Source of the DNA: Eukaryota sp. GEM-RC1
Taxonomy: Eukaryota
Direction of reading: 5' to 3'
Length of the DNA stretch: 64,000 bases
Assembly (NCBI GenBank): GCA_040285855.1
Contig: JAUFOQ010000006.1
Coordinates: 2,232,001-2,296,000 of the forward strand
Shown: piece by piece, positions 9,209-64,000 of the stretch
Layout: each line of letters begins with the position of its first letter
How positions within the stretch are numbered: the first letter of the stretch is position 1
Made by a program: the position numbers and the translations under genes
The notes under the pieces: model-generated
Seen by the model: the letters and a program-made list of their open reading frames with translations, nothing else
Databases searched by the model: none
Told to the model about the DNA's origin: nothing

Positions 9209-10104
9209 TCAATGTGTAGTACCAATAGTTCTATAAGCCGTTTCACAAGTTGCCATTAATTTCTTTGCCTCTTCAACTGCAAAACGCAGTGCTACTTTCT
9301 TCTTTGTGTTTGGCATGGAGTTGTTTTTAGCAGCCCAATAATTCATAACATCTTCTACTATTGCTAGATTAATATTTGCCCCACCCAAGTTGGTAGAGCC
9401 ATCAGTCCCTATTACGGTAACATCATCACTGTTAATATCTACAATAGATACATCAAAAGTACCACCACCGAAATCAAACACGAGAACTCGCTTGCCCAGT
9501 GTTGAAGAATCTTCGTGTTTTAGAGATAGAGCAGCAGCAATTGGTTCGCTGATAAGTGTGATTTCCTCAAAACCTGCTAGTTCAGCAGCACTCTTCGTTG
9601 CTTGACGCTGATGGTCATTGAAATAAGCAGGTACAGTGATGACAGCCTTGGTGATGTTTTCCACCCCCAGTACTTTTTGGGCATTGTCTTTTATATAAGA
9701 CAAGACTTTGGCACTGATTTCTTCGGGTCTGTATGTTTGGTCATTCACTTTAATTCCAGTGCATCCTGCAGGATATATCAGTTCTACGATATTGAAAGGG
9801 TATGTTTTCTTCATTTGTTGAACATCTTCATCATTAAAGCGACTTCCAATGAAACGTTTGACTTCAAAGACAGTGTTTTCTGGATATTTTTTCATCGAAG
9901 CCAGAGCAGGGCTACCAACTACACATTTTGTTGGAGACCTGAAGGAAACGACCGATGGAACTAACAAGTTGTTTGATAAACAGTCGGGTAGAACTTCAGG
10001 GTTGTGCCATCCAAGACTGCCATCCGGGTTCCGTTTTGGCGATAAACAGCAGCACAAGAGTTTGTTGTTCCAAGATCGATCCCAAGGACAATGGATGAAG
10101 ACAT
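9209..10104 (-). pseudogene. hsp70: Truncated Hsp70-like gene (most of NBD only), frameshift near 10040
   Basis: MSSSIVLGIDLGTTNSC in one frame, then VITVPAYFND, EPIAAAL, DFGGGTFDVS; stops after VEEAKK, no SBD. Confidence 0.8.
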
Positions 10105-19489: not shown

Positions 19490-21324
19490 ATCATCCCTTA
19501 TCTCCTCCCTTATCTCCTCTGGATGGCTCTACCAAAAGAAATCCACAAGTTGTTACACCTTTGCACCAAAAACGCAGAGTTCTACAATTTCTCGACGCTG
19601 AATTTGAAGCAAATAACCAGAGCTCCAAAGGGCTAATGGCCAAAGCCGTCGACCACTTTCCTAATATCTTCACAAGTAGGGTTAGAAATACTAACCTACA
19701 AAAAGTAACCCACTGGTGGAAAATTCATCAACAGAACCATGCAGTAGTGGTACATCCTTCTACTATCAGCAGTACTGTAAGAAACACAAGGAAGCGTGTT
19801 CTGTTGAAAGCCTTGCCAGGAAGAGGAAGAAAGCAGGCTGCATGGGTAACTTGGCTCCACGATGAACTTCTACACGAGTTTGATCGTTTACGTAAAGCTG
19901 GAGTACAATTTTCACCAGGTTTGTTACAAAGTTTAGCCCGTCAAATTTTGAATCATTCTGAACATGTTATGTTCAACTCAAATTTCGTTGCAGCTGGATC
20001 GAATATTTGTTTACATGATCGTATTACTCCCTCATGGATTCAGTTATTTAAAGAAAAAAAATGAAGTGGTGTCCAGAACTGTTTGTGGTAAGTTGATGGT
20101 GTCTGATGCAAAAAGAGAATATATTGACAGATCAGTTGCTTTTCATCTTGGCGTTGTTGCTAGAGCATTTGAAGACGGTTCTCTCGATGAAGACTATGTT
20201 TACAATTTTGATGAAACACATTTTATAATTGACATGGTTAACAAACGAACGTTAGGAGTAAGGGGTGAAGACCAAGTTTCATTCGCGGATGTTGTTTCGG
20301 GGACTGAGGGATTTACTGTAGTTGTGAAGATAAGAGGTGGGTCTAGAGCTAAAGTGACTGCCCCATTTCTGATTTTCAAAAACCAACTGTGCTCATATCC
20401 AATCAAAGGAACAAAGGACGATGATCCTCACGTTTCTTATTGCAGCTCAAAGAAGGGATTTATGACTTCCGATGTATTAGCAAAGTACTTCGCTGAAAGG
20501 AAGGTGAACGCAAAGGGATGTCTATTGAAAAGAAGATCTTGTTTTGTGACAATGTCAGTAGCCATAAGTTAACGACTGAAGTACAAGAAGCTCTTGACGA
20601 ACTTAATGCAGAAATGCGATTTCTACCTGCAAACGCAACTGATTTATATCAACCCTGTGACTCTTTCATCATAGCCAAATTAAAGGAAGAGTGGAAGAGA
20701 TTGTGGGGTGCTAAAAAGTTGGAGCTAATTGAAAATAAGCTATATGCTGAAGGCTCAGGGAAGATCAAAAATCCAGGAAAAAAGTTAATGTTGGACTTTG
20801 CTAAGGAAGCAGTTGATTATGTTAACTCAAGACAAGATGCTTCAGGTATCTCTTTTGCTCGAAAATCCATGATACGGTGTGGCCTCTCGCTTGATGTCGT
20901 GGGACGATGGCAAATTTCTCAGTTGTATCCTCAACGACAAGAAATTATGAGAAAATATCGGCCAAACTTTGATGGTCTCCCCTCCCTCCGAAAGCGTTTC
21001 AAGAGCAAGAAGATCTTCGCAACGTGATGTACCACCGGTTGAAGAGGATATTGTGGAAGTTGATGTTCAACAACCCAATGATGATGATATTATTGATCTT
21101 GAATAGTTTTCTGTTACTTGTTTATCATAAAAACTGTATCAATTAAATTTGAAGTTGACCAAGACTAAATTAAGTCTCCAAGAATTAGTCTTGGTGAGAC
21201 TAATAAAAATACAGTTCATTTAGTCTCACTCATAAATTAGTCTTGGTGAGACTAATTATTATGTGCACACGATTGAAAGTGTCTTAAGAATTAGTCTCAC
21301 CAAGACTAATTGTCAATGACAGTG
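19490..21324 (+). mobile_element. pogo/Tigger-like (DDE_1, CENP-B type) transposon, frameshifted; left end not identified
   Basis: YNFDETHF, FCDNVSSH, LPANATDLYQPCD across ORFs 19561, 19964 and 20518; right end ...TGACAGTG|TA with GAGACTAAT repeats. Confidence 0.85.
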
Positions 21325-21326
21325 TA

Positions 21327-24300
21327 CCTAATTCCGAAAAGTAGTTGCCTTCAAACAACTTGGACAAAATGGAATCAACATATCTATACATAGACCTAAA
21401 AATCGAAAAAGCAAATTTACTCTTCCAGTACGATCTGTTAAACTTCTTGCCAAATTCTGAACACAAATTTTCAAATAAACTTAAAAACTCCTTGGTAGAA
21501 GAACCGAAATTTCCGTACAATGAAACTGCAAAAGGCTGAAAGACAATATTATTGTGTCTTCGTGAATTCAATGCAACAACTTGATGTCCGTACTTAGACA
21601 CTTTAGCGTTCTCAGCGTCTTTCAGCGGATCATTTGAGGGATTCAAAATTTTGGCAATAGCTGAAGCTTTGCAAGGATCAACGGTCGTAAAATCAACAAC
21701 AATTTCTTGGCATGACAACCAAGGGCCAATAAAATCACCACGTTTCTGAGTAGAATCAGGGTGATCTGAAAGATGAGAAAGTAATGGTTCGACTTTGCCA
21801 TGGAAACCATTCGCCTTAAACATTTCCAAACATGTATCTCGAAGACTGTTGTGCAAAATTGAACGACAATATATGAACTTTGAACAATTGACCAAATGAT
21901 GAAAGCTAGCCTTATGTTGGTTTTTACAGATACACGTGCTGTTCTGTAACAAACCAAATGGCCAAAAACCTAAACGAAGTCTCATGTTAACAAGCCATTC
22001 ATGATCTTTTAGATTAAAAATAAATCTCCCTGGCAATTGAGTAATGAAAGTAGATGCTGAATCACTACTCATGTCTTGTAAAAATGCACAGAAAGCGGGA
22101 CTTTTAACTTTAGCCAAGCTAATGCAGTTAGTATAGTCCAAGCTCTCATGGAAAGATACAAATTTCTTCTGAAATTTTCTAACACCAAGAGGAAGGGAAA
22201 AAAGCGTTCGTTGAGGTGTTTCCGTCACAGATGCAGGGAACAAGGATTCCCAAACATCAGGGTTCATACCATCTACAAGATTTTGAAGTGATATAAGCCA
22301 TTGACAAGGCGAATATCGAATGAGATCTTCATTAGACCAAAGTAAGGGATAACGTAACTTAAATTCATACAGCAGATTCTTCAAACATCCTAAAAAGGCA
22401 CCTTCACGCATATAACGAGCTTTGGAAAACCAATTCCACCAAATCTCACAGCAGCAAATGAATGACGATGAATAGAAAGCTTTTTCGACTCTACCAGCTC
22501 TGACAAAAACTCTGTTCTCAGAGCGTTAAAACGACGAGAAAGGTCTATCGTAAGCTCAGGAGGTAACCCACGTAAAAAATGATTGACTTTACCTGCAAAA
22601 CAAACTTGCAAAGTGGCAAAGGATACTTGTTTTCCTACATTCAAATCTAACACATTTCTCAACTTTTGATCAAGAGAATCAATCTTCTTCTCCAGCATAC
22701 TCACAATTTGAGAGGAATTGCCAATAAAGTTTCCAAGAAACTTGATACAATCAGAAGAATAATTAATAAAAGGATTAGCAACACCTTCATGCAAATCAGT
22801 GTCATCCACACGACCAATAACAACACATTTGCTCAAATTGATTGTCAAACCAATTTGACCTGAAAGATCAACAAATCGAGCAAAACTTGGTTTCAAAGTA
22901 TGCATTTTGCCAACCAAAGAAGTATCATCAGCATACGAATTAATCATTATACCAGGAAACTCACTATGGAAAACTCGTAACACTTTCTGCAAAGGCAAAC
23001 AAAAAAGAAAAAGGGCCAAGAGGATCACCTTGCTTCACACCACGAGACGATTTCAAACAAAATTCGTTAAAAATCAAATCAGTAGGACTTCCATAGAATG
23101 CTTCAAAATATGGAACAAGTTCAGGAAAATGCTCCACCAGTTGATCATAAATTGCAGATCTAAAAACACAATTAAAAGCATTCTTGTAATCAACGTTTAA
23201 CAAAAAATTATCAACATCATTCAAAAATAGATCAGTTGTTAGACAAGCACAATTAGTGCCATCCACAATTCCAATTCCATATTGAAATGGTCGAAAGAAT
23301 TCAATCGCCTTCGATTTGATTCTACCAAAACAGATCGATGCTAACAATCTTGAAATACATTCACCAATAGCGATTGGTCTAACGCCACCACCTGGCTTAT
23401 CTAAAGCAACTAACCGACTAGTCTTTAAATCATCAGGACATTTTGCTGGATTCAACAATACAAGATTGAAAAAAACAGCTAAATCATCAGCAATTTCAGG
23501 GCAATGATTGACACATAACTTTAAATGGTCGAAGCTAAGACGAGAAGGACCAGCTGCTTTTCCAGATCTTGATTTATGAATTGCAAGTAAAACTTCCTCA
23601 GAGCTTATGGGTGAATCAATCCAATAATTAGAAGTATTACTTGAATAGTTTAAAGGTTCTTCAAGAGGATGCAACAGTTCAAGTTTGTGAACAGTATCAA
23701 TACTGTTCTCAGCAATGGAGGTTCCATCCAAAACAGATAAAGCCGAAGAGAACTGGCCCCTAAAAACAAGAGATCTGAAGAGACTACGTTCGGTTGTATC
23801 CGAATTAGATGACGAGGAAACAGACTTGTTTCTGACTTTCTTTGCTCGGGAAAGAAAGTAACGCCAAAGAGGAGAGGGATTCCACGAACCCTTACGTAAA
23901 GGATATGTAATTGCTCTCACAGCAGAAACTAAAGAAGAACCCACAGAGGGATGAATGGATAGAGGAATTGGCAAAGGAGGACGAACAGGGTCAGAAGGAG
24001 TACAAGACACACAGCATAGCAGAGGTCTGCCAGCAGAGTTTTTCCCCAGAGCATTAGACCGACAAAAAAGACAAATGGGAGCAGAAACACCAGAAGAAAG
24101 TAAGGAGGGAGAATCAGCAGAAGTAGCATCAAAGAGCGGAACATCGGAAGCAAGCAGATGCTCATGTGACTTAGACAAAGAAAGAGCTCTATCATCCATG
24201 TTGTTTCGAGCAGGGCAGTTTCGCTTATCGTGACATGTTGACGAGCAAACACTACACTTTCTAGGTAAACGACGAAAGCCTGCCTTTTTAGGAGGAGGCT

Positions 24301-24328
24301 TGGCAGGTTTTGACAAAATTGAAACCAT
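21327..24328 (-). mobile_element. CRE-like non-LTR retrotransposon, single ORF (Zn knuckle-RT-RLE), two frameshifts
   Basis: CSVCSSTCHDKRNC; KPGGGVRPIAIGE, DYKNAFN, GVKQGDPLGP, YADD; CICK...HLVNC; RGDFIG...VDFTTVDP. Confidence 0.9.
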
Positions 24329-25405
24329 GGAACAGGAAAAAAATATGATATAAAAATATGATATATTGTATGATATAGTAATGTTTGATATCTTATAGCA
24401 CCCTTGACATTGAAAGTCTTCCCTTACCTGATGTGTTTTCATGAACTTTCACGAGCTGGTAAAGCGCATTGTCCTTGTTACAATCGGATTGGAGAAAAGG
24501 AAGTGATGCCATTGTGGGGAAATGGTAAATGTAGTTTTCGAGCACCAGATTAGACTCTAAACTTGTGCTCTATACTGTAGAGTGTTGTTGAACAATTAAA
24601 ACTGGTCTAGGTTTATCACATACATGTATTATATTAATGACTTCACTTCAGTATGGATCACATTTGAATCACAAGTGATGTGATCACAAAAAAAAGGCCA
24701 GTGTGATCAATTGTGATCACAATCACAATGTGATCACATGTGTTTGTGATCCACAAGTATGGGAAGAACCATTCATCAATGAAGAAGTTGAGTCTATGAT
24801 GTGTTGTGATTGGGATGCAGATAGTTCTCCTTCACCTTTAGATGAGATCTTGGTGTTTTAAAGTATAAGACGGCTATTAAAGTAGAGTTCTATATTATTT
24901 TGAGATGAAATAGATGGAGGTCCTAATCAAGAGTGGAGAGCTAGCAGAAAGTGACCCTGTTTAGAAAGGTTGTGATATGACTGACCCTGATTTGAAAACG
25001 TGTGTTATAGACTGACCCTAAAATGAAAATGCCCCAATTTCATTTGTCACACGTATAGATCTATATTTTGGTCTGAATGATGTGAAAATGGATTTTGCTG
25101 CTAAACGAATGAAAGACGCCATTTCAGAAGTCCCCTACAGTAGGGATAAATGTGTAGAAGAAACGAGCTGTCTATCGTTAAACCAGAAACCAGGAAAAAC
25201 TCCTGTAACACAAACACGTAACAAGCGTGTTAGATTCGATTTTTGAACGTGTTAGCGTTCACTGAATTAGAGATCATGTACCAAATATCATTACGTTAAT
25301 TTAAGATAAATTAGAAAACAGTCATTTACAAGTACATGTATATAACATTAATAACATAACTAGAAGGAAGTATGAAGAAAAATACTAACAAAAAAGTGAC
25401 TCAAG

Positions 25406-27427
25406 TTATGGACTGAATCGGAATTGACTTTGAAGTCTTTCAATTTTGATGGAAGCTGTATTTGATTTGTCTTGAAGATCTTCAGCTTCTACATGTAATA
25501 TTCCATCTGAATCAATGATCATTGTGGTAGATATCTGGGCCTCTCCTGCTGGAAGTGGAGGTAGATTACTGATCCTGAAGCGTGCAAGAAATGTATTTAG
25601 AGACACAACCGAGGCCTCACCTTGATACACATTGATAGTAGTTGATGTTTGATAGTCGGCAGTAGTAACGTAAGTATCATTGAACATACAAGGAACACTG
25701 GAATGCCTAGGAATGATGACACTCATGGTACCAACTTCATTGGTTTCGGATTTAGATTTGATACTTATACCCAAACTATGAGGAGTAACATCATGAAGAA
25801 CGTGATGGAAATATGCAGCAGCACCAGCGGCTACGGATTGGTCAGGATTGAGAGTTTTTCTTACTTTACCAGGAAACTTAAGTTCAAGCATTTCTTGAAC
25901 CTTTCTCAAACGAGAAGATCCTCCTACAAGTTGGACGTAGTCGATGGCAAAAGATTGAAGACGGAGGGATTGAAGAAGTTCCTCAATAATCGATAAGCAT
26001 TTGGTAATGTAAGGGGCACAAATAGCATCAAAACGGTCTTTAGTTAAGACAAGTTCAAGATCATTTCCAGAAGCAAAGTTCTCAACTTCTATTTCAGCCT
26101 CATCTTTAGTCGTTAGGGCTTTCTTTGCTTTCTCTACCGCAAAACGCAATAAGACTTTTCTTCTTTTCAGTTGGTAAGGAGTAACAGTTATTGTCAGTAA
26201 TCCAGTTTTTCATAACATGGTCTACTATGTCTTGATCGATATTTGCCCCACCTAAGTTTGTAGAGCCATGAGTTCCAATGACAGTAATGTCATCACTTTT
26301 AATATCTACAATAGATACATCAAAGGTACCACCACCAAAATCAAATACGAGAACTCGCTTGCCGACTGTCGAAGGATCTTCTTGTTTTAGAGATAGAGCA
26401 GCAGCAGTTGGTTCGTTGATTAGGGTGATTTCCTCAAAGCCGGCAATTTCAGCAGCTGTTTGTGTTGCTTGACGTTGATCATCATTGAAATATGCAGGTA
26501 CAGTAATGACAGCCTTGGTGATGTTAGTCTGTCCCAGAGCATTGATAGCGTTAGTTCTGATGTGAGACAAGACTCTCGCACTGATTTCTTCGGATCTATA
26601 TGTTTGGTTATTCACTCTAATACCAGTAAATCCATCACTTAGTTCTACAATTCTGAAAGGATACCTGGATTTCATTTGTTGAACAACTTCATCATTAAAA
26701 CGTCGTCCAATAAATCGCTTAATCTCAAAAAAAGTTTTATCAGGGTGTTTCTTCATAGTATCTCGAGCATCAACACCGACGACACAATTCTGGGATGCGA
26801 AGGAGACAATAGATGGAACAAGTCTTTCAGCTGAGTCGAAATCTGTCAGAACTTCTGTGATGTGAGAAGTGAAACTGCTCTCAGATTCTCGTTTTTGACG
26901 GTATATAGCGGCACAAGAGTTTGTTGTTCCAAGGTCGATCCCAAGGACAATGGATGAAGACATTTGAGAATTTGGCCGTGTATTGGTGAAGGATGAACTA
27001 GTCTCGTTTGGTGAAGTATTGACGGAAACAATAGGGGAAGTACCAGGAGTTTCTATTTGTTGGTTGTTCGCTGATGAGCTGGACTGATGATGGTTGTAAA
27101 TGTTACGTCTTGTATTGTTTCTGGGTCTCTTTGAGTTGGGGCGACGATGACGACGAGTTTTTGGGCCCCTGGCATCTTCAACTTTAATATAGTTCTCCCC
27201 CCATTTCTGACAATTCCAATGAGATTTGATAGATTCACCTACTTCGACAGAAGGTACAGAAATGATAGCGTATCCAGGCATGTTAGGAACATGGCGAAAC
27301 ATCATGACATCACAATCGGGAAAGAAATGAAGCCTTTCCAGTAGCTCAGATACAGTGAACCAATGAGGAAGATTGCCTAAAATCAGACTGAAGATACACA
27401 CGAACCAATGTAGATGTTGGGGATCAT
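25406..27427 (-). CDS. hsp70: RRM-Hsp70 fusion protein (lidless); intron 27377-27405; frameshift near 26160
   Basis: Spliced start MIPNIYIGNLP (RNP2-like), GYAIISV (RNP1-like); then GIDLGTTNSC, DFGGGTFDVS, LVGGSSR and SBD-beta; ends QFRFSP. Confidence 0.85.
27377..27405 (-). other. Predicted 29-nt spliceosomal intron
   Basis: GTTCGTGTGTATCTTCAGTCTGATTTTAG; splicing creates IYIGNLP; same position and length in the paralog. Confidence 0.8.
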
Positions 27428-27431
27428 GTTA

Positions 27432-29675
27432 TACAGAAATTTCTAAAGATCTTGCTAATTACCTCCAACAGATGGTTTGTTTGAAAGTTATTCCTCCAAT
27501 TGAATTGACTGCTGCTCAACTTATTGCTTTAGTAAAACCAGGTAACGGAATTAAGCCTGATCGAATCCGTCCAATTGCAGTTGGAGAATCAATTTCTCGT
27601 TTATTCGCATCAACTGTGTTTAATCGAGTGGTCGATAAAGCGGGTCGCTTTTTGTCTCCATTTCAATTTCGAATTAAGACAATTTACGGGGCTTCTGTTG
27701 CTGCCTTAACATCAGATTTGTTTTTCAATTCACATGATGATAATTCCATTTTAAATCTTGATTTTAAAAATGCCTTTAATTCAGTTAGTTGTAAATCTGT
27801 TTTTGCTGCTATTGAAAACGACTCTCCTGAGTTGATGTCCTACTTTTATTTATTTTATGGAAAACCAAGCGATTTAATTTATGATTCATATTCATTGAAA
27901 TCTATGTCTGGTGTTAAACAAGGAGATCCTCTTGGTCCTCTTTTTCTTTTGTTTGGTCATTCATGAAGCGCTTTTGTGTATTTTAAACAAATACCCAGAC
28001 CTTAAGATAGTTGGTTATATCGATGATATTTCTATTATTGGCCCCCTTGAATTGTTAAAAAGGTCGCTGTGGAAGTGGCTGATATTTATGAAACATTGGG
28101 TTTATCTCTGAACCCAGACAAATGTTTATTAATTGGTAGATCTACACAAGAATTATTTATTAATGGAGTGCAGATTCCATTTATCAATTATGTTGAAGAC
28201 GCTTTTCGTTTTCTAGGATGTTGGCTTGGGAATGTTCCTAAAATTTCTCAAGAATTATCTAATTGTTTGGACAAAATTGGTTCAGAACTCAACACAATTT
28301 CTTCATAAGATATTGAAACACATAACAAAGTTTTCTATTGTAAAAATTTGCTACTCCGGAAAAATCACACATCTTTTGAGATCTACTGCTCCTTTAATCA
28401 CTCTGAACTTGTGTAGATCTTTTAACGAGTTGAGGATTAATTTGTTTGCTTCATTGTTAGAAGTTGATTCAACGTTACTTAGAAGTCATTTGTTTACTTC
28501 TGCTCATTTTGGTGGTATTGGTTTTATCAAATCTTCAATTCTTTGCAAATCTGCTTTTTTAGGCGGTAGAAAAAATTCGTCTTTGAATTTGTTAATCGGT
28601 TTCCTAATGATATTTCCCTTATTAACCCCAATTCATGTAAATCTTTATTTGACTTAAACGAAGCGTTAATCAAATAACCTTTTGACGTTTGGTCTCAGTG
28701 TTTCCCAGAATCTGTGTCTGAAATACCTGAAAGATCTTTGACTAATCTTCAGTTCTGTCTGAAAAATTACAACAGAAACTCACAAATATTTTTTGAAAGC
28801 TTGTTCGAAAAACATCCCGCTTTTGCAAATTTCTTAATGGATGTTTCCAATATCTCTCCTTCATGTCTGATTACACAAATCCCTCAAGTTTACGGTCTTC
28901 TTCTTGATGATAACTCTTGGTCATTACACATGCGTTTACGGTCATATATTTGGCCTGATAACCTTCCACATAATTTGAAATGCCAATGTGGGCAATCTGT
29001 AACACCTACAGATTTATTAAATTGTAACCGTTTTATTTCTTTTAGAAGTAAGGTTCATGATTCAGTAAGGGATCAATTATATTGTATGTGTAAATCTTAT
29101 GGAATAGTTTCCTTTTAGAACCAGTTCTGACTGATTTGTTTGGTGGTACGGGTATTGACATATCGTTTGAAAATAGCCGTGGTGATGTCATATATCCTGG
29201 TCTCGATGGATCATTGATTATTGCTGATGTTATGTCTATCGACGTTTGTAATGGTTCCAACAAGAAACTTGCTAAATCCAATGCTAACAACCCTCTGTTG
29301 TTTGGTGAAAAATTTAAAAAAGAAAAATTTTGTGCTAAATTGAAATTATTGAATTCGGTTTCATACTCGAATTACGTGTTGTACCCTTTTGTGTTTTCAC
29401 TGTACGGTTCTTTAGGTGAATCTGCCACTTCACTACTTGAAATCTTTGTAAAGATTGTAAAAGAAAAAACATCTATGACTTTTGATCTTAGATTTTGGAA
29501 AAATCGAATCGTGTTTGCTATCTTTAAAGGTATGGTGACTTCTGTATCTAGTGCTTTATTATCTCTTATTATGAAGATAAGATAGGTGAATTTTTTTTCA
29601 GTTGGGTAATCTGGACTTTGAGGATATTGATTATTAGATGTATGTCCACTGTAGTGTTGTTGTCAATAAAAACTT
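27432..29675 (+). mobile_element. 5'-truncated, degenerate CRE-like LINE (second family)
   Basis: RIRPIAVGE, DFKNAFN, GVKQGDPLGP, YIDD, CQCG...LLNC, RGDVIY...ADV, WKNRIVFAIFKG; several stops and frameshifts. Confidence 0.88.
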
Positions 29676-29861
29676 GATCCATAAAAAAATATTGGATCAT
29701 TATATTTTATTTGTAAGGATTAAGTTGTAACTTATGAATATAGAAGTATCACAGAAAATCAACCATCTTTATGGCAGAAAATGCCATACGCGTATGGCCG
29801 TATGGCGCGTATGGTATTATGGCACATAACGCTGGATAATTATGTTAACCTACTACTACTA

Positions 29862-30441
29862 CACTGGTTTGTCTAATTGGTCTCACTGAGACTAATATGC
29901 AAGGAAGTTTTCATCATCAATTTTAGAATTAGTCTCACTGAGACTATTTATCTGATGAGACTAATTCATAAGGTGAGCCTAATTTCAAGACTACTTTACC
30001 ATTGCTTATTACCATTCATTTCGAAAAACTATTGATCATTGATACCAGTCCCATAAAAACACTCAGAATATTTTCCATTATGTTCTTCAAAAACAAGTCA
30101 CATTTGAGTGATGTTTAACTGCTCAAACAGAGTCCACGTCTAACTACAGCTTATCTAATACGTAATACCATCAGAATCCCAATTATTTTCGTCGGAAATA
30201 CTAAAAGCAGGGTTGTGAGGTCGAGGGATGCGTGCTTAAACGAAACCTGCAACGATCGGTCATGAAGAGACAAGAGCGTAGTCCTCAAAGCTAGGTCATA
30301 GGAAAAACAAAAATTAATAGAAATATACACTTAGACGGAGTTTATTTGAATTATAGTCTCACTGACAAAATTCAAAGGCCAATTTTAGAATTGATCTCAC
30401 TGAGACTAAATTGCTGATGAGACTAATTAGACAAACCAGTG
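29862..30441. mobile_element. MITE, second copy of 5726-6322
   Basis: TIR CACTGGTTTGTCTAATT; TA TSD; full-length similarity to 5726-6322. Confidence 0.88.
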
Positions 30442-30451
30442 TAGTACTGTA

Positions 30452-30559
30452 TAGAGCTGTCAAACGGTTCGGCTCAAGTCGTAAGCCGAACGATTTGAGC
30501 CAAGTCATATCCAAATTTGGCTTGGCTTACTCAAATGGCTCAAGCAGTTGACAGCTCTA
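30452..30559. mobile_element. Mini hAT-like MITE (108 bp)
   Basis: TIR TAGAGCTGTCAA...TTGACAGCTCTA; no matching TSD seen. Confidence 0.55.
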
Positions 30560-30599
30560 CTTCATTATGTGAAAATCAGTCCGAGTCCATATGAAAGCA

Positions 30600-31045
30600 C
30601 CAGGAGTAAACCAATAAACGCATATCTTTTCCACATTCCTTAACATGACACTGGGCTCTGAAATCTTGGCTGTTTTTGATCGACAAAGAGTAACTTCAAT
30701 GGAATCCTATCTGCCTCCCAACACAACTCATTCACTACAACCCGCAGATTCTCTTGTCATTCCAAATATCAAGACAAACTTTTTAAAGACATGGAACACT
30801 AAGAAAAGAGAATTGATTAACTACCGCAACTTTTCTATATCAGGATAGATTTCAAATCTTGGAAAGCAATTCGTTCTTCAATTAGCTGAAGAATGTGTCA
30901 ATGAAGTCAATGCAGACGATGACTATGATGGTAATTCACATGTTCGCAAAGCCATGATTGAGCTTGAACACAACTGGTTGTTGGGAAATTGAACGGTTGA
31001 AATCAGAGCTTCAAGAAATTATCAAAAAGTATTCTGATCAATTTA
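30600..31045 (+). mobile_element. pogo-like DDE_1 transposase fragment
   Basis: YLPPNTTHSLQPADSLVIPNIK, homologous to ORF 20518. Confidence 0.75.
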
Positions 31046-31259: not shown

Positions 31260-31358
31260 TGATATCGATATGGTATGGGGAAAGAATGGGGGAAGGTAAA
31301 AGGTGTTTATAAAGTGAAATAACTGACTACGTAACCATACTAATACCTTTGGCTAACA
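31260..31358. mobile_element. 99-bp insertion, candidate solo LTR
   Basis: TG...CA ends with ATAC duplicated; absent from the duplicate site at ~49935. Confidence 0.6.
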
Positions 31359-31794
31359 ATACTAAGACTAAATCCAAACGACTTCATCACAACCCTGTAA
31401 AAGATTACGTTTTTCAACATTAAGCTTCACACCAAACTTGTACAAGTTCTCAATTAATCGAGAGAAATAGAAAGGCATATTCCGACATATAAAAAACACT
31501 ATGATGTGCTACTGTTGACCAGGAATTTTCTGTGTCTAGTGTCTCAGACTTTTATATGTATTTTTGTGCCCTCCATCGATAAACTATTTTTAAATGTTAT
31601 TTAACAAAGACTGTCAGTCAATTTGACTCGACTTGAAATATACAGTAGTCGACTCGACTCTGCTTTGATATCTCATGAGTAGACTCGACTAAACTCACTT
31701 GGTTCTAGTTGTTGGACGTACAAAACACTGAACATAATAACTTATCAATCAGAACCAGGTACATAGCTATTATCAAGTAAAATCAAAAATTAGA

Positions 31795-33585
31795 CTATAA
31801 TCTACCAGAAAGACGAACAAAAGGGACATTTGGATTGTCTGTAGAGTGCAAATCGATACCAGCATCAAGGTCAGATACAGAAACATTACAGTTCAGTTTT
31901 GTTTTAGACCCATGACAAATTTGAACACTCAATGTATCCTCAGGACACATCCTTAAATTAAAAGTAAACTTTTCTTTTTCTTGAATTCACGAAATGTAGG
32001 GGTTTGCGTGTGCTGAAGATCGTCATGAGTTAGGACAAATAGAATAGATATATCTGCTGTACAAACAAAATGATTCAAAGGTTCTGTGTAGACGACAAAC
32101 TCAGCTTCATCACACAGATCAGGTTTCTGGTTTTTGAATCATTTTCAACTGGTTGGTCCATTATAATAACTGGAATCCTCTTAAAAACCCCATTTTGACT
32201 CTCAGCAATGTTAGTAGGGAGTAAACTCTGGTTGGTCGGTGCACAATCATGTTCATGACAAGCGTTTTGGCGAAAACTTGTACCACACGAAATTTGACTT
32301 GTACATGTGTGAGAATGTGTGCCAGTTTCTTCTATAGGTGTTCCAGAAACGATTAATTGAGTTTGTTCGGTTTTCTCTTCATGTGGTTCAGCTCCAGTAT
32401 GTGTTAAAACAACATTTTGAGGTCTCAGGTGTTTAACATTTGACGGATCTTTCCATCGTAGTCCTCCAAGAGCAACATCAGTGTTAGGATCCAGTATACA
32501 AGCCAAAGGTGCTTTAAAAGCCGATCGCATCCGTTCTCTAACTGAATGAAGAGCTGCTAACCTTCCAACTGGAACAACTTTGGTAACAAATTGTGACTGT
32601 ACATATTTGGCTTGTTCCTCAAGCAGCTTAACAAAGTTCTCTCGAAATGCCTCCAATTTCCCAGAAAGATCTTTCAAGAAACTGTCAAGTACAGATGGTG
32701 GAACATCTTCCTCAAAGTCACCATTTGGATAAAAGTCTTCTACCAAAACTGACATCCTAGTTTTAGTTTTAGCTTTATTACATGCCAAAAGTAATTTCAT
32801 CTTGGATTTTCATTCATTGTGGCACGGATTTCTTCATCAATTTTAGTTAAGCAGTACTCATACAAAGCTTGGTCAACTTGAACAGCACCCATCCACCACT
32901 CTTCAGAATGAATGATATTAATGTCAAATCGTTGATGGAGAAAGACAACAGCTTTGGTAAGTAACTGACCAACATCTACAATGACGACGGTTTCAAGTTT
33001 AGAGGGTGCATGGGCTTTAAAGAGATAAGAAGCTACAAGAGCTTCCAGAGTAGGGACAACAGTGATATCAGGATAGTCAAGGTTATGGAATGTATCAAGA
33101 AGAACATTTTGATGTTGTACAGGTAGACTTTGAGGAAGAACCAATGATGATATGTCAAAAGGGGAGTTGATGCAATGATTCAGTTCAAGTATAATGTGTT
33201 CTACAAGAGGAAGAAGGAGTTCTGTTTGTGTGAGATTTTTACAAACACTGTTCACATTTACGGAGAAGACAAGACCGTCATTGATTTGGCTGACATTTCC
33301 CATAAGGAAAGAAGTAAAAGGAAGATGTAAGGGTTTAGGGGAAGATTCTTCTGTGACTTCAGTGGGGACAATGTGTGTAGCAGACACAAAACAGTTTTTG
33401 GCATGCTTCTTGACTTTGGATTCGGCATTTTGAGCTGTGAAAAAAGACCCCAGTTCTTTAACAACGACATTAGAAAGGAACATCGCATCGGTACTTGTTT
33501 GTAAACTAGTATCTCGATTATCCACGTCATTTCTCACCGCGAGGACGATGCCGTAGGATCCCAGATCTAAAGAAACATGATGCAT
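31795..33585 (-). CDS. Divergent Hsp70/Hsp110-like NBD plus unrelated C-terminal region (frameshifted; possibly a pseudogene)
   Basis: VSLDLGSYGIVLAV, TLEALVASY, VIVDVGQ, MGAVQVDQALYEY, KLLLACNKAK and VVPVGRLAAL align in order to Hsp70-superfamily NBD motifs. Confidence 0.65.
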
Positions 33586-33630
33586 TTAAGAATGATGAAA
33601 TTTGTAATAGAAATTCACAGTCTTCACTAC

Positions 33631-35212
33631 ATGTCTTCATCCTTTATTCTTGGGATCGATCTTGGAACAACAAACTCTTGTGTTGCATTTTATCGTCACA
33701 AGCGAGAAACTGAGAGCAGTCACACACCTCACATCACAGAAGTTCTGACGGATTTCCTGTCTTCGGAAAGACTTGTTCCATCTATTGTCTCCTTCGCATC
33801 CCAGAATTGTGTCGTTGGTGTTGATGCTCGTGATACTATGAAGAAACATCCAGATAAGATTGTGTATGAAGTCAAACGTTTCATTGGACGACGTTTTAAT
33901 GATGAAGTTGTTCAACAAATGAAAACCAGGTATCCTTTCAGAATTGTAGAACTAAGTGATGGATTCACTGGTATTAGAGTGAATAACCAAACATACCGTC
34001 CCGAAGAGATCAGTGCGAGAGTCTTATCTCACATCAGAACTAACGCTATCAATGCTCTGGGACAGACTAACATCACCAAGGCTGTCATTACTGTACCTGC
34101 ATATTTCAATGATGATCAACGTCAAGCAACAAAGAGGGCTGCATATATTGCCGGCTTTGAGGAAATCACCCTAATCAACGAACCAACTGCTGCTGCTCTA
34201 TCCCTAAAACAAGAAGATCCTTCGACAATCGGCAAGCGAGTTCTCGTATTTGATTTTTGGTGGTGGTACCTTTGATGTATCTATTGTAGATATTAAAAGT
34301 GATGACATTACTGTCATTGGAACTCATGGTTCTACCAACTTAGGTGGGGCAAACATCGATCAAGAAATAATAGACCATGTTATGAAAAACTGGACTACTG
34401 ACAATAACTGTTACTCCTTACCAACTGAAAAGAAGAAAGTCTTATTGCGTTTTGCGGTAGAGAAAGCAAAGAAAGCCCTAACGACTAAAGATGAGTCTGA
34501 AATAGAAGTTGAGAACTTTGCTTCTGGAAATGATCTTGAACTTGTCTTAACTAAACAACGTTTTGATGCTATTTGTGCTCCTTACATTACCAGATGCTTA
34601 TCTATCATTGAGGAACTTCTTCAATCCCTCCGTCTTCAATCTTCTGCCATCGACTACGTTCAACTTGTAGGAGGATCTTCTCGTTTGAGAAAGGTTCAAG
34701 AAATGCTTGAACTTAAGTTTCCTGGTAAGCTCAGAAAAACTCTAAACCCTGATCAATCCGTAGCTGCTGGTGCCGCTGCCTATTTCCATCACGTTCTTTA
34801 TGATGTTACTCCTCATAGCTTGGGCACTGATATCAAATCTAAATCAAGAACGAAAGAAGTTGGCACTATGAGTGTTATCATCCCTAGGCATTCCAGAATT
34901 CCTTGCAAGTTCACTGAAACTTACTACACTTCATGTGACTTTCAAACCACACTTACCATTGGTGTTTTTCAAGGTGAAGCCACGATTGTGTCTCTAAACA
35001 CATTTCTTGGACGCTTTGAGATCAGTAATCTACCTGTTCTTCCAGCAGGAGAAGCCAAAGTATCAACTACAATGATCATTGATTCAGATGGAATATTGCA
35101 TGTTGATGTTGAAGATCTTCAAAACAAATCAAATACAGCTTCAATCAAAATTGAAAAGCTTCAAAGTCAGTTCCGGTTTAGTCAACGTCTTGATGAAGTG
35201 TCTCGAACTTAG
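33631..35212 (+). CDS. hsp70: Lidless Hsp70-like protein, no N-terminal extension; frameshift in the T-run near 34255
   Basis: Canonical NBD motifs and SBD-beta; intact duplicate at 52212-53792. Confidence 0.9.
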
Positions 35213-35310
35213 TTATAACTTATATGCTAATCCATTTGGTTTTAATAAATGAAAATATAAAAATAAATTTGCTCATCCAGCCACTAGCAGTAAGAAAAAG
35301 AAACTTTTTT

Positions 35311-36170
35311 CTGTACCTAATATGGTACCCTTCCTACAAAGCTACAAAATGAAGCTGTATGAAATTGTAAAAACAAACAAAAATAATATTAAGACTAAAT
35401 CTAAACGACTTCCTTTTCATCTGGTAAAAGATTAAGTTACTCAACAATAACTTTCACACCAAACTTGTACAATTTCCCAACTGATGGAGAGAAATAGAAA
35501 AGCATATTAAGATATATTGAAAACACAATACGGTTTTTCAATCAGCTTTTCTAATACTAACACTTGTTTTCTTTACACAGTTCTTGGAATTCATTGAAAA
35601 ATAGACTACCAGCAGGACTAATCGATCCAAAAAGATAACCAGCAAAAGGTCAAAACACAAATATGAAATATGGGTTTCGATTTAACTATTCTACTTGAAA
35701 GTCAGAATTGGATTGTTTGAGTTTTTCAACATCTGTTGACTGATTAAAAGAACAAGCTAACATCCTTCTAACACCAAAATTTGTTACAAACATCTACTAT
35801 GGTATAATCCATTAATGATTGACTCGATTTAAGCCATGAAGTACGGAGGTCTTGCTCACTCTAAAGTTGAACCAGTTTTGAATCACCTTTTACAAAATGA
35901 ATTTACGGGTCAAGAAAAAGTGTGCTTTAATCATGAAATAACAAGCATCACGTACACCATCATGAATAACTGAACGTAGATGAATAAAATAACGACAATT
36001 AATTAAATGGCGAATAAGAGTACTAGTTCCACAAGAGCAAGTTGAATAGTTTAATCAATTTGCAGGCCAAATAGCCAAACGAAGACTCATATTGATCAAC
36101 CAAGCTTCATCAGATAAATGTAATCCAAACGCCTTAGGATTTTGAGAAATACATCAAGAAGGTCCACCAT
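35311..36170 (-). mobile_element. Degenerate 3' fragment of CRE-like LINE (third family)
   Basis: Minus strand reads FGLHLSDEAWLINMSLRLAIWP...CSCG...HLINC...HDGVRD; 3' part similar to 31200-31510. Confidence 0.7.
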
Positions 36171-36529: not shown

Positions 36530-36636
36530 TCCAAGTCAAGTCGAACGACTGGACTTAAAAATTCTCAAGTTACTTGGAATTGACTTGATTCAAGTCGATC
36601 AACGTGTGCCTTGAGTCAAGTCGTTTGACAACACTA
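36530..36636. mobile_element. Orphan hAT-like end
   Basis: CAAGTC subterminal repeats ending GTTTGACAACACTA, similar to the TIR at 30452. Confidence 0.45.
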
Positions 36637-36639
36637 ATA

Positions 36640-44324: not shown

Positions 44325-46646
44325 TTATGGACTGAATCAGAATTGACTTTGAAGTCTTTCAATTTTGATGGAAGCTGTATTTGATTTGTCTTGAAGATCT
44401 TCAGCTTCTACATGTAATATTCCATCTGAATCAATGATCATTGTGGTAGATATTTGGGCTTCTCCTGCTGGAAGGGGGAGGTAGATTACTGATCCTGAAG
44501 CGTGCAAGAAATGTATTTAGAGACACAACCGAGGCCTCACCTTGATACACGTTGATAGTAGTTGATGTTTGATAGTCGGCAGTAGTAACGTAAGTATCAT
44601 TGAACATACAAGGAACACTGGAATGCCTAGGAATGATGACACTCATGGTACCAACTTCATTGGTTTCGGATTTAGATTTGATACTAATACCCAAACTATG
44701 AGGAGTTACATCATGAAGAACGTGATTAAAGTAGGCAGATGCACCAGCAGCCACGGATTGGTCAGGATTGAGAGTTTTTCTTACTTTACCAGGAAACTTA
44801 AGTTCAAGTATTTCTTGAACCTTTCTCAAACGAGAAGATCCTCCTACAAGTTGGACGTAGTCGATGGCAGAAGATTGAAGACGGAGGGATTGAAGAAGTT
44901 CCTCAATGATAGATAAGCATCTGGTAATGTAAGGGGCACAAATAGCATCAAAACGGTCTTTAGTTAAGACAAGTTCAAGATCATTTCCAGAAGCAAAGTT
45001 CTCAACTTCTATTTCAGACTCATCTTTAGTCGTTAGGGCTTTCTTTGCTTTCTCTACCGCAAAACGCAATAAGACTTTCTTCTTTTCAGTTGGTAAGGAG
45101 TAACAGTTATTGTCAGTAGTCCAGTTTTTCATAACATGGTCTATTATTTCTTGATCGATGTTTGCCCCACCTAAGTTGGTAGAGCCATGAGTTCCAATGA
45201 CAGTAATGTCATCGCTTTTAATATCTACAATAGAAACATCAAAGGTACCACCACCAAAATCAAATACGAGAACTCGCTTGCCGATTGACGAAGGATCTTC
45301 TTGTTTTAGAGATAGAGCAGCAGCAGTTGGTTCGTTGATTAGGGTGATTTCCTCAAAGCCGGCAATATATGCAGCCCTCTTTGTTGCTTGACGTTGATCA
45401 TCATTGAAATATGCAGGTACAGTAATGACAGCCTTGGTGATGTGAGACTGTCCCAGAGCATTGATAGCGTTAGTTCTGATGTGAGATAAGACTCTCGCAC
45501 TGATTTCTTCGGGACGGTATGTTTGGTTATTCACTCCGATACCAGTGAATCCATCACTTAGTTCTACAATTCTGAAAGGATATCTGGTTTTCATTTGTTG
45601 AACAACTTCATCATTAAAACGTCGTCCAATAAATCGCTTAATCTCAAAAAAAGTTTTATCAGGGTGTTTCTTCATAGTATCTCGAGCATCAACACCAATA
45701 CTACATGGCTGGGATGCGAAGGAGACAATAGATGGAACAAGTATTTCAGCTGAGTCGAAATCTGTCAGAACTTCAGTGATGTGAGATGTGAGACTGCCGT
45801 CTGGTTCTCGTTTTTGACGATAAACTGCAGCACAAGAGTTTGTTGTTCCGAGGTCGATCCCAAGAACAATGGATGAAGACATTTGAGAATTTGGCCGTGT
45901 ATTGGTGAAGGATGAAGTCTTGACTGCAATAATAGGAGTTGCAGAGGTCATGTTGTAATGTGAAAGATCCTGGTCATCGTCTAAAACGAGACCTTTGAAA
46001 ACAAGTTTAAGTCCAAAAGAGTATTGTGACTCACAAAGTAGATCGTAGACCTTCGATTTCAAGATATGTACTTTGTCAGTGGGATCAACGTCTACTTCGA
46101 AGATACGGGATGGGTTTAGCAGGCGAACTCTAAGTTGTCCTTGTCTTTCTCGTAATCTCTTGACTCTACTTTCATAGATTCTCTGGAAAAAGGGTACACT
46201 TCGGTGGGGTCTTCTTTCTGGGCGACTAGGAGAAGTCTTAGGTTCGTCAGTCTCTACGTTGTTAGCCGTTGAGCTGGATGGGAGACGTCCGTTCATGTTA
46301 CATCTTCGACCTCGACCTCGACCTAAGGGGGGACGGTTAACACGAGATCTGGGGGGTAAGGTATCCATGACTTTGATTTCGTGTTCTCCCCACATCTGAC
46401 CATTCCAATGAGATTTGATGAATTCACCTATTTCAGCAGAAGGTACGGAAATGATTGCAAATGACCCATTAAACCACATAGAATCTCGACGCACAATGAC
46501 GTCACAACCGGGGAATAAACTGAGCTTTTCCAAAAGTTCAGTTACAGTGAAGCCATGAGGAAGATTGCCTTAAGTCAGACGGGGTATTCACACAAACCAA
46601 TGTAGATTCTTGTAGTACGAGTGGGTTCATCAGGTTCACCACACAT
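44325..46646 (-). CDS. hsp70: RRM-ubiquitin-like-Hsp70 fusion protein (lidless); intron 46569-46597; frameshift in the G-run near 44475
   Basis: Spliced start MCGEPDEPTRTTRIYIGNLP; RGRGR linker; Ubl FEVDVDPTDKVHILKSKV...LKLVFKGLVLDDDQDLSHYNM; Hsp70 NBD and SBD-beta in one open frame. Confidence 0.88.
46569..46597 (-). other. Predicted 29-nt spliceosomal intron
   Basis: GTTTGTGTGAATACCCCGTCTGACTTAAG with CTGAC branch motif; splicing links ATG 46646 in frame to the 700-aa ORF. Confidence 0.85.
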
Positions 46647-52211: not shown

Positions 52212-53792
52212 ATGTCTTCATCCTTTATTCTTGGGATCGATCTTGGAACAACAAACTCTTGTGTTGCATTTTATCGTCACAAGCGAGAAACTGAGAGCAG
52301 TCACACACCTCACATCACAGAAGTTCTGACGGATTTCCTGTCTTCGGAAAGACTTGTTCCATCTATTGTCTTCTTCGCATCCCAGAATTGTGTCGTTGGT
52401 GTTGATGCTCGTGATACTATGAAGAAACATCCAGATAAGATTGTGTATGAAGTCAAACGTTTCATTGGACGACGTTTTAATGATGAAGTTGTTCAACAAA
52501 TGAAAACCAGGTATCCTTTCAGAATTGTAGAACTAAGTGATGGATTCACTGGTATTAGAGTGAATAACCAAACATACCGTCCCGAAGAGATCAGTGCGAG
52601 AGTCTTATCTCACATCAGAACTAACGCTATCAATGCTCTGGGACAGACTAACATCACCAAGGCTGTCATTACTGTACCTGCATATTTCAATGATGATCAA
52701 CGTCAAGCAACAAAGAGGGCTGCATATATTGCCGGCTTTGAGGAAATCACCCTAATCAACGAACCAACTGCTGCTGCTCTATCTCTAAAACAAGAAGATC
52801 CTTCGACAATCGGCAAGCGAGTTCTCGTATTTGATTTTGGTGGTGGTACCTTTGATGTATCTATTGTAGATATTAAAAGCGATGACATTACTGTCATTGG
52901 AACTCATGGTTCTACCAACTTAGGTGGGGCAAACATCGATCAAGAAATAATAAACAATGTTAAGAAAAACTGGACTACTGACAATAACCGTTATTCCTTA
53001 CCAACTGAAAAGAAGAAAGTCTTATTGCGTTTTGCGGTAGAGAAAGCAAAGAAAGCCCTAACAACTAGAAATAAGGCTGAAATAGAAGTTGAGAACTTTG
53101 CTTCTGGAAATGATCTTGAACTTGTCCTAACTAAAGACCGTTTTGATGCTATTTGTGCCCCTTACATTACCAGATGCTTATCGATTATTGAGGAACTTCT
53201 TCAATCCCTCCGTCTTCAATCTTTTGCCATCGACTACGTTCAACTTGTAGGAGGATCTTCTCGTATAAGAAAGGTTCAAGAAATGCTTGAACTTAAGTTT
53301 CCTGGTAAGCTCAGAAAAACTCTAAACCCTGATCAATCCGTAGCCGCTGGTGCCGCTGCCTATTTCCATCACGTTCTTTATGATGTTACTCCTCATAGCT
53401 TGGGCACTGATATCAAATCTAAATCAAGAACGAAAGAAGTTGGCACTATGAGTGTTATCATCCCTAGGCATTCCAGAATTCCTTGCAAGTTCACTGAAAC
53501 TTACTACACTTCAAGTGACTATCAAACCACACTTACCATTGGTGTTTTTCAAGGTGAAGCCACGATTGTGTCTCTAAACACATTTCTTGGACGCTTTGAG
53601 ATCAGTAATCTACCTGTTCTTCCAGCAGGAGAAGCCAAAGTATCAACTACAATGATCATTGATTCAGATGGAATATTGCATGTTGATGTTGAAGATCTTC
53701 AAAACAAATCAAATACAGCTTCAATCAAAATTGAAAAGCTTCAAAGTCAGTTCCGGTTTAGTCAACGTCTTGATGAAGTGTCTCGAACTTAG
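52212..53792 (+). CDS. hsp70: Lidless Hsp70-like protein, intact ORF (526 aa from MSSSFILG)
   Basis: GIDLGTTNSC, EVKRFIG, TVPAYFND, NEPTAAA, DFGGGTFDVS, LVGGSSRI, DVTPHSLG, IDSDGILHV; no lid or EEVD. Confidence 0.93.
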   Translation: MSSSFILGIDLGTTNSCVAFYRHKRETESSHTPHITEVLTDFLSSERLVPSIVFFASQNCVVGVDARDTMKKHPDKIVYEVKRFIGRRFNDEVVQQMKTRYPFRIVELSDGFTGIRVNNQTYRPEEISARVLSHIRTNAINALGQTNITKAVITVPAYFNDDQRQATKRAAYIAGFEEITLINEPTAAALSLKQEDPSTIGKRVLVFDFGGGTFDVSIVDIKSDDITVIGTHGSTNLGGANIDQEIINNVKKNWTTDNNRYSLPTEKKKVLLRFAVEKAKKALTTRNKAEIEVENFASGNDLELVLTKDRFDAICAPYITRCLSIIEELLQSLRLQSFAIDYVQLVGGSSRIRKVQEMLELKFPGKLRKTLNPDQSVAAGAAAYFHHVLYDVTPHSLGTDIKSKSRTKEVGTMSVIIPRHSRIPCKFTETYYTSSDYQTTLTIGVFQGEATIVSLNTFLGRFEISNLPVLPAGEAKVSTTMIIDSDGILHVDVEDLQNKSNTASIKIEKLQSQFRFSQRLDEVSRT

Positions 53793-62614: not shown

Positions 62615-62896
62615 AATCTTATACTGCACCGTTATCGTTGAGTGCTCGTTGAAGAAGATTAGCAGACTGATATGTTTGTATTTTACTTTGTATTTTGGCG
62701 TATTTTTGTATTTTTCAAATGAAAACTCGTGTATTGTACAAGTATGTATGACATCAAATAACAGCGGCACGTACAGTACATGTACCAAATATAATTACAT
62801 TGATTTAAGATAAATTACAAAACATTCATTTACAAGTATATAACATTAATAACATAAGGAAGTATGAAGAAAAATACTAACAAAAAGTGACTCAAG

Positions 62897-64000
62897 TTAT
62901 GGACTGAATCAGAATTGACTTTGAAGTCTTTCAATTTTGATGGAAGCTGTATTTGATTTGTCTTGAAGATCTTCAGCTTCTACATGTAATATTCCATCTG
63001 AATCAATGATCATTGTGGTAGATATTTGGGCTTCTCCTGCTGGAAGGGGGAGGTAGATTACTGATCCTGAAGCGTGCAAGAAATGTATTTAGAGACACAA
63101 CCGAGGCCTCACCTTGATACACGTTGATAGTAGTTGATGTTTGATAGTCGGCAGTAGTAACGTAAGTATCATTGAACATACAAGGAACACTGGAATGCCT
63201 AGGAATGATGACACTCATGGTACCAACTTCATTGGTTTCGGATTTAGATTTGATACTAATACCCAAACTATGAGGAGTTACATCATGAAGAACGTGATTA
63301 AAGTAGGCAGATGCACCAGCAGCCACGGATTGGTCAGGATTGAGAGTTTTTCTTACTTTACCAGGAAACTTAAGTTCAAGTATTTCTTGAACCTTTCTCA
63401 AACGAGAAGATCCTCCTACAAGTTGGACGTAGTCGATGGCAGAAGATTGAAGACGGAGGGATTGAAGAAGTTCCTCAATGATAGATAAGCATCTGGTAAA
63501 TGTAAGGGGCACAAATAGCATCAAAACGGTCTTTAGTTAAGACAAGTTCAAGATCATTTCCAGAAGCAAAGTTCTCAACTTCTATTTCAGACTCATCTTT
63601 AGTCGTTAGGGCTTTCTTTGCTTTCTCTACCGCAAAACGCAATAAGACTTTCTTCTTTTCAGTTGGTAAGGAGTAACAGTTATTGTCAGTAGTCCAGTTT
63701 TTCATAACATGGTCTATTATTTCTTGATCGATGTTTGCCCCACCTAAGTTGGTAGAGCCATGAGTTCCAATGACAGTAATGTCATCGCTTTTAATATCTA
63801 CAATAGATACATCAAAGGTACCACCACCAAAATCAAATACGAGAACTCGCTTGCCGATTGTCGAAGGATCTTCTTGTTTTAGGGATAGAGCAGCAGCAGT
63901 TGGTTCGTTGATTAGGGTGATTTCCTCAAAGCCGGCAATATATGCAGCCCTCTTTGTTGCTTGACGTTGATCATCATTGAAATATGCAGGTACAGTAATG
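62897..64000 (-). CDS. hsp70: 3' half of Hsp70-like gene (duplicate of 44325-46646); 5' part outside the window
   Basis: Near-identical to 44325-45430; frameshifts near 63500 and 63047. Confidence 0.88.

Follow-up and report, generated by a model that had tools for sequence, protein, structure and literature searches.

The gene of interest (copy A) occupies positions 25406..27427 of the minus strand in a 64-kb stretch of DNA, referred to below as the window, from the anaerobic metamonad Skoliomonas sp. GEMRC. When spliced it corresponds to NCBI GEMRC1_006416 (P0002; Eukaryota sp. GEM-RC1) and it encodes, in order, an RRM, a linker, a ubiquitin-like (Ubl) domain's remnant and an Hsp70 that lacks the helical lid. 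Its first exon, of only 22 nt (27406..27427), specifies the first strand of the RRM and is followed by a 29-nt GT-AG intron (27405-27377, with the same position and length as in the second RRM-bearing gene of the window, copy B); the N-terminus MIPNIYIG-NLPHWF..., with which P0002 also starts, appears only when this intron is removed. The gene comprises 663 codons if a single extra base in its Hsp70 part is not real and otherwise stops after 430 codons. In the NCBI model, of 652 aa, a second predicted intron bypasses the frameshift.

The RRM (27171..27418, minus strand) and the first RRM of a family of two-RRM proteins in Skoliomonas (P0009, P0015 and the fragment P0014) are homologous. A direct Pfam scan of this domain gave no match. 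Its ESM Atlas model, compared with RRM_1 clusters, reaches a TM score of 0.82 over residues 1-84, and it shares 53% identity (E 3.9e-39) with P0005, a protein with repeats that score above the Pfam cut-off for RRM_1; the diverged but homologous RRM announced by the original prediction is thereby confirmed. The tyrosines of IYIGNL and GYAIISV, the putative RNP2 and RNP1 motifs, are kept, and Ile/Val stands in for the second aromatic residue of RNP1, a substitution seen throughout the donor family. A profile run over all six frames of the window found only two RRMs. An AlphaFold2 model of P0002, made from the single sequence without an alignment, had a pLDDT of 35.6 and was discarded; three of six representative matches (P0007, P0008 and P0010) were likewise set aside as chance matches driven by repeats.

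The low-complexity linker that follows (27033..27170, minus strand) ends in TSP and originates from the same two-RRM donor gene. It is as basic as had been claimed, with 11 K+R and 1 D+E in 46 aa. Beyond the Ubl remnant (27014..27037), the SSFTNTRPNSQ junction (26964..26996) leads up to the original Hsp70 ATG. That copies A and B share this junction also held true: over the 30 nt preceding the ATG the two do not differ at a single base, and the window has no other instance of this stretch, which is absent in particular from the copies starting at 10104, 33631 and 52212, the source of all the other Hsp70 5' ends there.

Transposons abound in the window (MULE, hAT, DDE_1, LTR and non-LTR elements). 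An LTR retrotransposon with protease, RT, RNase H and integrase lies at 36905-41948 and again at 55478-60513 (plus strand) and has a 59-nt inverted repeat within it (38237-38295/38803-38861). MITE-like elements at 29857-30446 and 43338-44042 have terminal inverted repeats of 29 nt (97%) and 23 nt (100%), respectively. Diverged non-LTR copies were found at 21284-24448 (minus), 47065-47930 (plus), 35464-36231, 54029-54757, 12070-12549 and 655-816; among them are remnants lying directly 3' of the stops of Hsp70 copies C and D, and one element some 400 nt upstream of the start of copy B. Positions 31355-45427 and 49929-64000 constitute a 14-kb tandem duplication (99.1% identity, 79 substitutions, 18 indel events), which includes copies C and D, the LTR element and copy B; either the region duplicated recently or the assembly has placed two haplotypes one after the other. 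Ordinary host genes of the RIO kinase and AP endonuclease 2 families (3436-5041 and 6519-7498, plus strand) are each split over two frames, owing to a small intron or an indel. Finally, a frameshifted, unannotated set of ORFs (32075-33585 and 50369-52160, minus strand) stands head to head with copy C, 45 nt from its ATG; by eye it has phosphate motifs like those of the actin fold, and searches of Pfam and PDB returned no match for it.

A lid-less Hsp70 family

The window holds six Hsp70 copies. Besides A, there are copy B (44337..46646, minus strand); paralog C (33631..35212, plus) and its tandem duplicate D (52212..53792, plus), neither of which has an N-terminal extension; paralog E (9209..10104, minus; 84% to P0003), which is truncated, frameshifted and without an RRM upstream; and the 3' part of the tandem duplicate of copy B (62895..64000, minus), whose N-terminus lies beyond the window.

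Pfam HSP70 and PDB alignments identify the Hsp70 part of copy A (25406..26963, minus strand) as an atypical member of the family, made of an NBD and an SBD-beta, with a shortened interdomain region and no helical lid. The Pfam match covers positions 1-498 of 599 and includes SBD-beta. When the extra base is read across, BiP and Ssb1 can be aligned with the NBD over its phosphate loops and over the catalytic Lys, Glu and Asp. The stop at 25406 comes right after SBD-beta, so that both the SBD-alpha lid and the C-terminal tail are missing; C, D and P0003 end likewise. Compared with Hsp70A, about 12 residues are missing before the interdomain linker, which reads VLHD instead of LLLD. Thr takes the place of the Val in the pocket of BiP and of the Arg that precedes IINEP, residues with roles in peptide binding and J-protein coupling, and GGANID replaces GGEDFD. 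Among the best 60 of 124 PDB matches, those at the top are cytosolic and ER Hsp70s (Hsc70, Hsp70A, BiP and Ssb1; about 275 bits for the whole), and the protein scores below the NCBIfam cut-offs for DnaK. A mitochondrial or DnaK identity, considered on account of a TTNSC motif and the lack of a four-residue NBD insert, was rejected because the C-terminal half scores higher with cytosolic and ER Hsp70s (123-128 bits) than with DnaK and mtHsp70 (95-115 bits).

The organism also has canonical cytosolic, ER and mitochondrial Hsp70s. In supplement file 3 of PMC11316075, over the first 400 characters of each cell, none of the 32 Hsp70 occurrences is a GEMRC row of the lid-less family; over the same span of the supplements, none of five marker peptides of these genes was found. 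That file does contain one member of the family from S. litria, namely g6625 (827 aa, FPKM 15.4). Its first codon is the Hsp70 ATG, from which it follows that the RRM/Ubl extension is lineage-specific.

As the original prediction had stated, the Hsp70 parts of A and B are nearly identical (94% over 479 codons) while their RRMs have diverged (64% over 73 codons, or 70% without an ambiguous loop) and yet remain open. The identity is patchy: in 150-nt windows the distance between the two Hsp70 parts ranges from 0.10 down to 0.01 along the gene, and the tandem twins C and D are 0.05-0.07 apart in one tract and 0.00-0.02 elsewhere. Odd-one-out sites, 179 in all, fall into 55 runs, a degree of clustering that was reached in none of 20,000 shuffles and that could partly come from rate differences along the gene, although the C-D tract is hard to explain that way. 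To judge by this patchiness, the Hsp70 bodies have likely been homogenised by gene conversion, a process known for Hsp70 paralogs in fungi (PMC3879978). The SSFTNTRPNSQ junction is then likely to mark the left edge of the homogenised tract.

Origin of the chimera and the deletion in copy A

Copy B (P0011) has the order RRM, linker, helix, Ubl and Hsp70. Its ATG lies at 46646 and its 29-nt intron (46597-46569) at the intron site of copy A; position, length and splice sites are kept between the two introns, and 8 of the 29 bases differ (counted by eye). This correspondence implies copying of the RRM piece at the level of DNA. The segment from RRM to helix matches P0014, whose model lacks most of its first RRM, at 62% over 84 aa, and P0009 of S. 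litria, where P0015 is a second homolog, at 34% over 140 aa (E 4e-19). After TSP comes the helix block of the two-RRM donor (46138..46235, minus strand; 29/33 aa identical to P0014), which is lost from copy A. Next to it, the Ubl (45913..46137, minus strand) shares 60 of 75 aa with the organism's own Rad23 (P0001, with the order Ubl-UBA-XPC-binding-UBA) and has no di-glycine end; a tblastn search with P0001 matched the window at the Ubl only, and not with its UBA and XPC-binding domains. Homology shows copy B, as read from these alignments, to be a chimera of three donors: the 5' half of a two-RRM gene, the Ubl of Rad23 and an Hsp70. Language-model features describe the two-RRM donor protein as Rrt5-like (score 0.90), which we regard as a lead only.

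Similarity searches with length limits, which may pass over unrelated RRM-Hsp70 fusions in other organisms, found relatives with this N-terminus only in Skoliomonas. Searches for close relatives confirmed none of 205 pattern matches in metagenome contigs and none of nine in viral contigs, and a literature search at the level of titles and abstract openings yielded no published RRM-Hsp70 or Ubl-Hsp70 fusion. Judged from sequence, the RRM-Ubl-Hsp70 architecture is new but lineage-restricted, and its function is predicted only. Separately, P0005 (GEMRC1_007396) has this RRM twice in tandem, preceded by a ubiquitin-like fragment which does not come from Rad23 (23% identity) and which makes it a second, independent RRM-Ubl pairing.

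The pieces of three genes, with an intron retained, and their location among so many MULE, hAT, DDE_1, LTR and non-LTR elements bring to mind fragments carried by transposons of the Pack-MULE or Helitron type and devoid of host function. One could also envision a chimera created by the error-prone long-read assembly, which was made from Nanopore R9.4 reads with Illumina correction and is 48% repetitive (PMC11316075). However, no pair of TIRs flanks A or B (24300-30600 and 42000-48000 searched), and the fusion exists at three separate loci (A, B and P0006, a further copy that is 98% identical to B over 312 aa), with diverged sequences, open frames and dN/dS below 1. We give these explanations next to no chance.

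Copy A differs from B by what it has lost. The 24 nt at 27037-27014 encode PIVSVNTS, where copy B and Rad23 have PIIAVKTS in the last strand of the Ubl, and they match the 3' end of the copy B Ubl at 19 of 24 positions; among about 128,000 sites on both strands of the window, only A itself and B attain at least 19/24. In copy B, a 294-nt block with 6-nt microhomologies at its ends (45933..46232, minus strand; repeats 46232-46227 and 45938-45933) spans the corresponding region. The repeats start at 46232 and 45938, 294 nt or 98 codons apart, and joining them yields the sequence of copy A. The 18 nt after the joint in A match the end of the Ubl at 14 of 18 positions, as against 5 of 18 for the left continuation. 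Copy A keeps the last 8 Ubl codons, then 18 extra bases, and a folded Ubl is not present in it. Since the donor has the helix block directly after TSP, B is ancestral and A derived at that place. Aligned in this way, the sequences show an in-frame loss of 294 nt from copy A, bounded by a pair of 6-nt microhomologies, and we infer that the mechanism was microhomology-mediated. A MAFFT alignment had suggested that SSFTNTRP might be the decayed start of the donor's second RRM; this was rejected, as the DNA remnant puts the Ubl directly 5' of the junction. The statement that the Ubl block exists only in the copy at 44-46 kb is therefore accurate for the bulk of the block and has to be amended for the 8-codon remnant.

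Selection on the RRM and the condition of copy A

Ratios of dN to dS were obtained from Nei-Gojobori counts for the pair A and B, and as such they average past time, do not speak of present function and may hide selection acting at individual sites. For the RRM (73 codons) dS is 0.60, dN 0.27 and dN/dS 0.45 (95% bootstrap 0.20-0.91); for its 64-codon core, with the ambiguous loop dropped and kappa set to 1-4, dN/dS is 0.31-0.46 and P(w>=1) 0.002-0.017. Over the same range of kappa the whole Hsp70 gives 0.27-0.35. In the first set of counts, the first half of the Hsp70 gives 0.32, and the linker 0.78 (0.38-1.59). The two regions part company in dS, which is 0.58 (CI 0.31-1.11) in the RRM versus 0.11 (CI 0.08-0.15) in the Hsp70, with non-overlapping intervals and values 4-5 times higher in the RRM. 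Similar dN/dS with differing dS indicates that RRM and Hsp70 regions differ in age, the RRM being the older. In a tree of RRMs the pairing of A with B was not recovered, and A groups with P0005 at 50%. The probability that the 146 N-terminal codons are free of stops by chance is 0.04-0.006 at 0.2-0.3 substitutions per site. Together these comparisons support the view that the RRM has been under purifying, not diversifying, selection and is constrained no less than the Hsp70. Of the original prediction, the claim that the RRM is kept under selection is supported and the claim that it is diversifying is not, the excess divergence being one of dS. Gene conversion, we note, can mimic "diversifying" N-termini.

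The same prediction saw here a modular, swappable N-terminus, a view that amounts to active exchange of N-terminal modules together with an RRM that diversifies under selection. N-termini do vary among the copies (none, RRM, RRM plus Ubl), and the sharp step in identity at SSFTNT is a boundary of recombination or conversion. Yet dN/dS is below 1 and equal to that of the Hsp70, the Ubl remnant and the microhomologies reveal a deletion, and a census of junctions within the window finds a single extended type among the five copies that retain a 5' end. What survives of the swappable N-terminus is that it was assembled from two host genes; the difference between A and B, an internal deletion in A, contradicts active swapping for this pair, and we consider that reading very improbable.

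Two features that the prediction did not mention bear on whether copy A is intact. The first is the extra base, which lies in a T4 run (26156-26159, minus strand; T3 in the four other aligned copies) and breaks the Hsp70 frame. It is either real or an assembly error, and the frequency of similar indels is compatible with the latter: the 14-kb tandem twins differ by 15 one-base indels, 14 of which fall in runs of at least 3, although such runs make up 18% of the bases. If all 15 (in 28 kb) are errors, the rate is about 1 per 1.9 kb, so that one indel is expected in a 2-kb gene. Copy B has an extra base of its own in a G5 run near its 3' end (44474-44478), common to B and its tandem duplicate, and P0006 is cut at 324 aa. 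With frameshifts in A and B, P0006 cut and E truncated, no RRM-bearing copy is seen intact as assembled.

The second feature is a 5'-truncated, frame-broken non-LTR retroelement (27436..29585, plus strand), the truncated end of which directly adjoins the start codon of copy A. Reverse-transcriptase homology begins at 27436, 9 nt from the ATG and on the opposite strand, and at such a distance the native promoter of copy A has probably been displaced. A 7-nt target-site duplication including the ATG is not significant, as 12% of 3000 random position pairs have one, and a similarity between the far flank of the element and the DNA upstream of copy B (p 0.06) was dropped.

These features invite the reading that copy A descends from a once-functional chimera and is now silent or pseudogenic, its promoter cut off by the retroelement and its frame broken, while conversion keeps its Hsp70 part looking healthy. 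Loss of the Ubl is an event of the kind expected in decay, E is truncated and the other copies are broken as assembled, and birth-and-death is a known mode of evolution in Hsp70 families (PMC3879978). Against this, the 146 N-terminal codons have neither stop nor frameshift, the intron is intact and errors at the local rate (15 in 28 kb) would be expected to leave roughly one homopolymer indel in such a gene. Moreover, the adjacent retroelement has at least three frame changes by tblastn (about five by eye, plus two stops) in 2.15 kb, against one in the 2.0-kb gene, a difference that hints at continued selection on copy A. We consider decay a serious contender, though the less probable one. Were copy A silent, it would be an ordinary product of birth-and-death.

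Proposed history, predicted function and known systems

The history that we propose starts from a divergent Hsp70 family of this lineage whose members end after SBD-beta and normally begin at their own ATG. In copy B, as homology shows, this ATG is preceded in frame by the intron-bearing 5' half of a gene with two RRMs and by the Ubl of Rad23, which were presumably brought there by ectopic recombination at the DNA level in this transposon-rich region. Copy A then lost 294 nt, presumably by microhomology-mediated deletion, leaving 8 Ubl codons behind, and gene conversion would have kept the Hsp70 bodies alike while the unique N-termini aged independently. This succession of chimera, deletion and conversion is well supported by the comparisons above and is probably correct. 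It is also what gives the locus its interest, as new-gene formation can be traced here in a barely studied protist lineage, with both donors, the joints and the later deletion readable from the DNA.

As to function, the RRM and the basic linker are predicted to bind RNA or RNPs and the NBD to bind ATP, and the lid-less SBD-beta may transiently hold unfolded segments nearby, much as Ssz1 does. The held segments would, in copy B, be passed by the Ubl to the proteasome; copy A would hold only, and the retroelement next to its start codon may have shut it down in the meantime. On balance we lean, if by a little, towards regarding copy A as an in-frame deletion derivative of the three-gene chimera, with its RRM kept by purifying selection, which likely encodes an RNA-tethered, low-affinity Hsp70 without the predicted proteasome docking. 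If expressed, A and B would offer a natural pair for testing an Hsp70 with built-in RNA tethering and proteasome docking.

An altogether different role can be imagined, in which the Hsp70 is an ATP-dependent switch in defence or signalling and the RRM and Ubl are integrated baits, sensors or decoys for viral or intracellular-bacterial proteins directed against Rad23 and the RNA-binding protein of the host. Skoliomonas species have many long, divergent Hsp70-like proteins (about 790-1620 aa; PMC11316075 supplement file 3), the S. litria protein g6625 shows motifs of a kinase at its C-terminus (identified by eye in the nucleotide sequence given there), the same RRM is found beside another Ubl-like piece in P0005, and the copies are clustered in repeat-rich DNA. 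A bait receptor is nevertheless improbable, in that there is no signal of positive selection, SBD-beta is not followed in these copies by any effector or signalling domain, no pathogen is known, and the Ubl seems to have gone by a simple deletion. It is tempting to speculate further that the lid-less Hsp70 serves as a fusion chassis in Skoliomonas, joined to a kinase in one species and to an RRM and the Rad23 Ubl in another. The RRM-Ubl-Hsp70 protein might then be a single-chain machine that binds RNPs, holds chains and docks on the proteasome, or else an integrated-bait sensor, and copy A an expressed variant without the docking arm; we offer this broader scheme as a conjecture that is rather unlikely to hold in full. 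The reading that we favour remains that of an RNA-tethered holder derived by deletion.

Such a protein shares the ATP-binding motifs of canonical Hsp70 and is deprived of its lid, its C-terminal tail and its conserved hydrophobic linker. DnaK without the lid has lower affinity and faster exchange, and Ssz1 acts as a lid-less holder (PMC7083937). Copy A resembles Ssz1/HSPA14 in combining NBD and SBD-beta with an altered interdomain linker and no helical lid, and low-affinity holding beside an RNP is what Ssz1 does (same source). The differences are that Ssz1 is tethered via Zuo1 and does not hydrolyse ATP, whereas copy A has a predicted tether in its fused RRM and keeps the catalytic residues. 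No Ssz1 entry appears among the best 60 of 124 PDB matches or in a second set of 33. Ssz1 also forms a stable, low-copy subfamily (PMC3879978) whereas the family described here is young and multi-copy, and six copies in 64 kb would argue against an Ssz1-type stability in number. With regard to the donors, the Skoliomonas two-RRM protein gave RRM1, linker and helix, and its second RRM is replaced by Ubl-Hsp70 in the chimera; Rad23 gave the Ubl, present at 60/75 in B and as the 8-codon remnant in A, and the chimera is without its UBA and XPC-binding domains. Modules of this kind are met in other chaperone systems: BAG-1 unites a Ubl with an Hsc70-binding domain, and proteins such as DNAJC17 unite a J-domain with an RRM. 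These likewise link Hsp70 with the proteasome or with RNA, but they do so in trans, as co-chaperones, whereas in copies A and B modules and Hsp70 form one fused protein.
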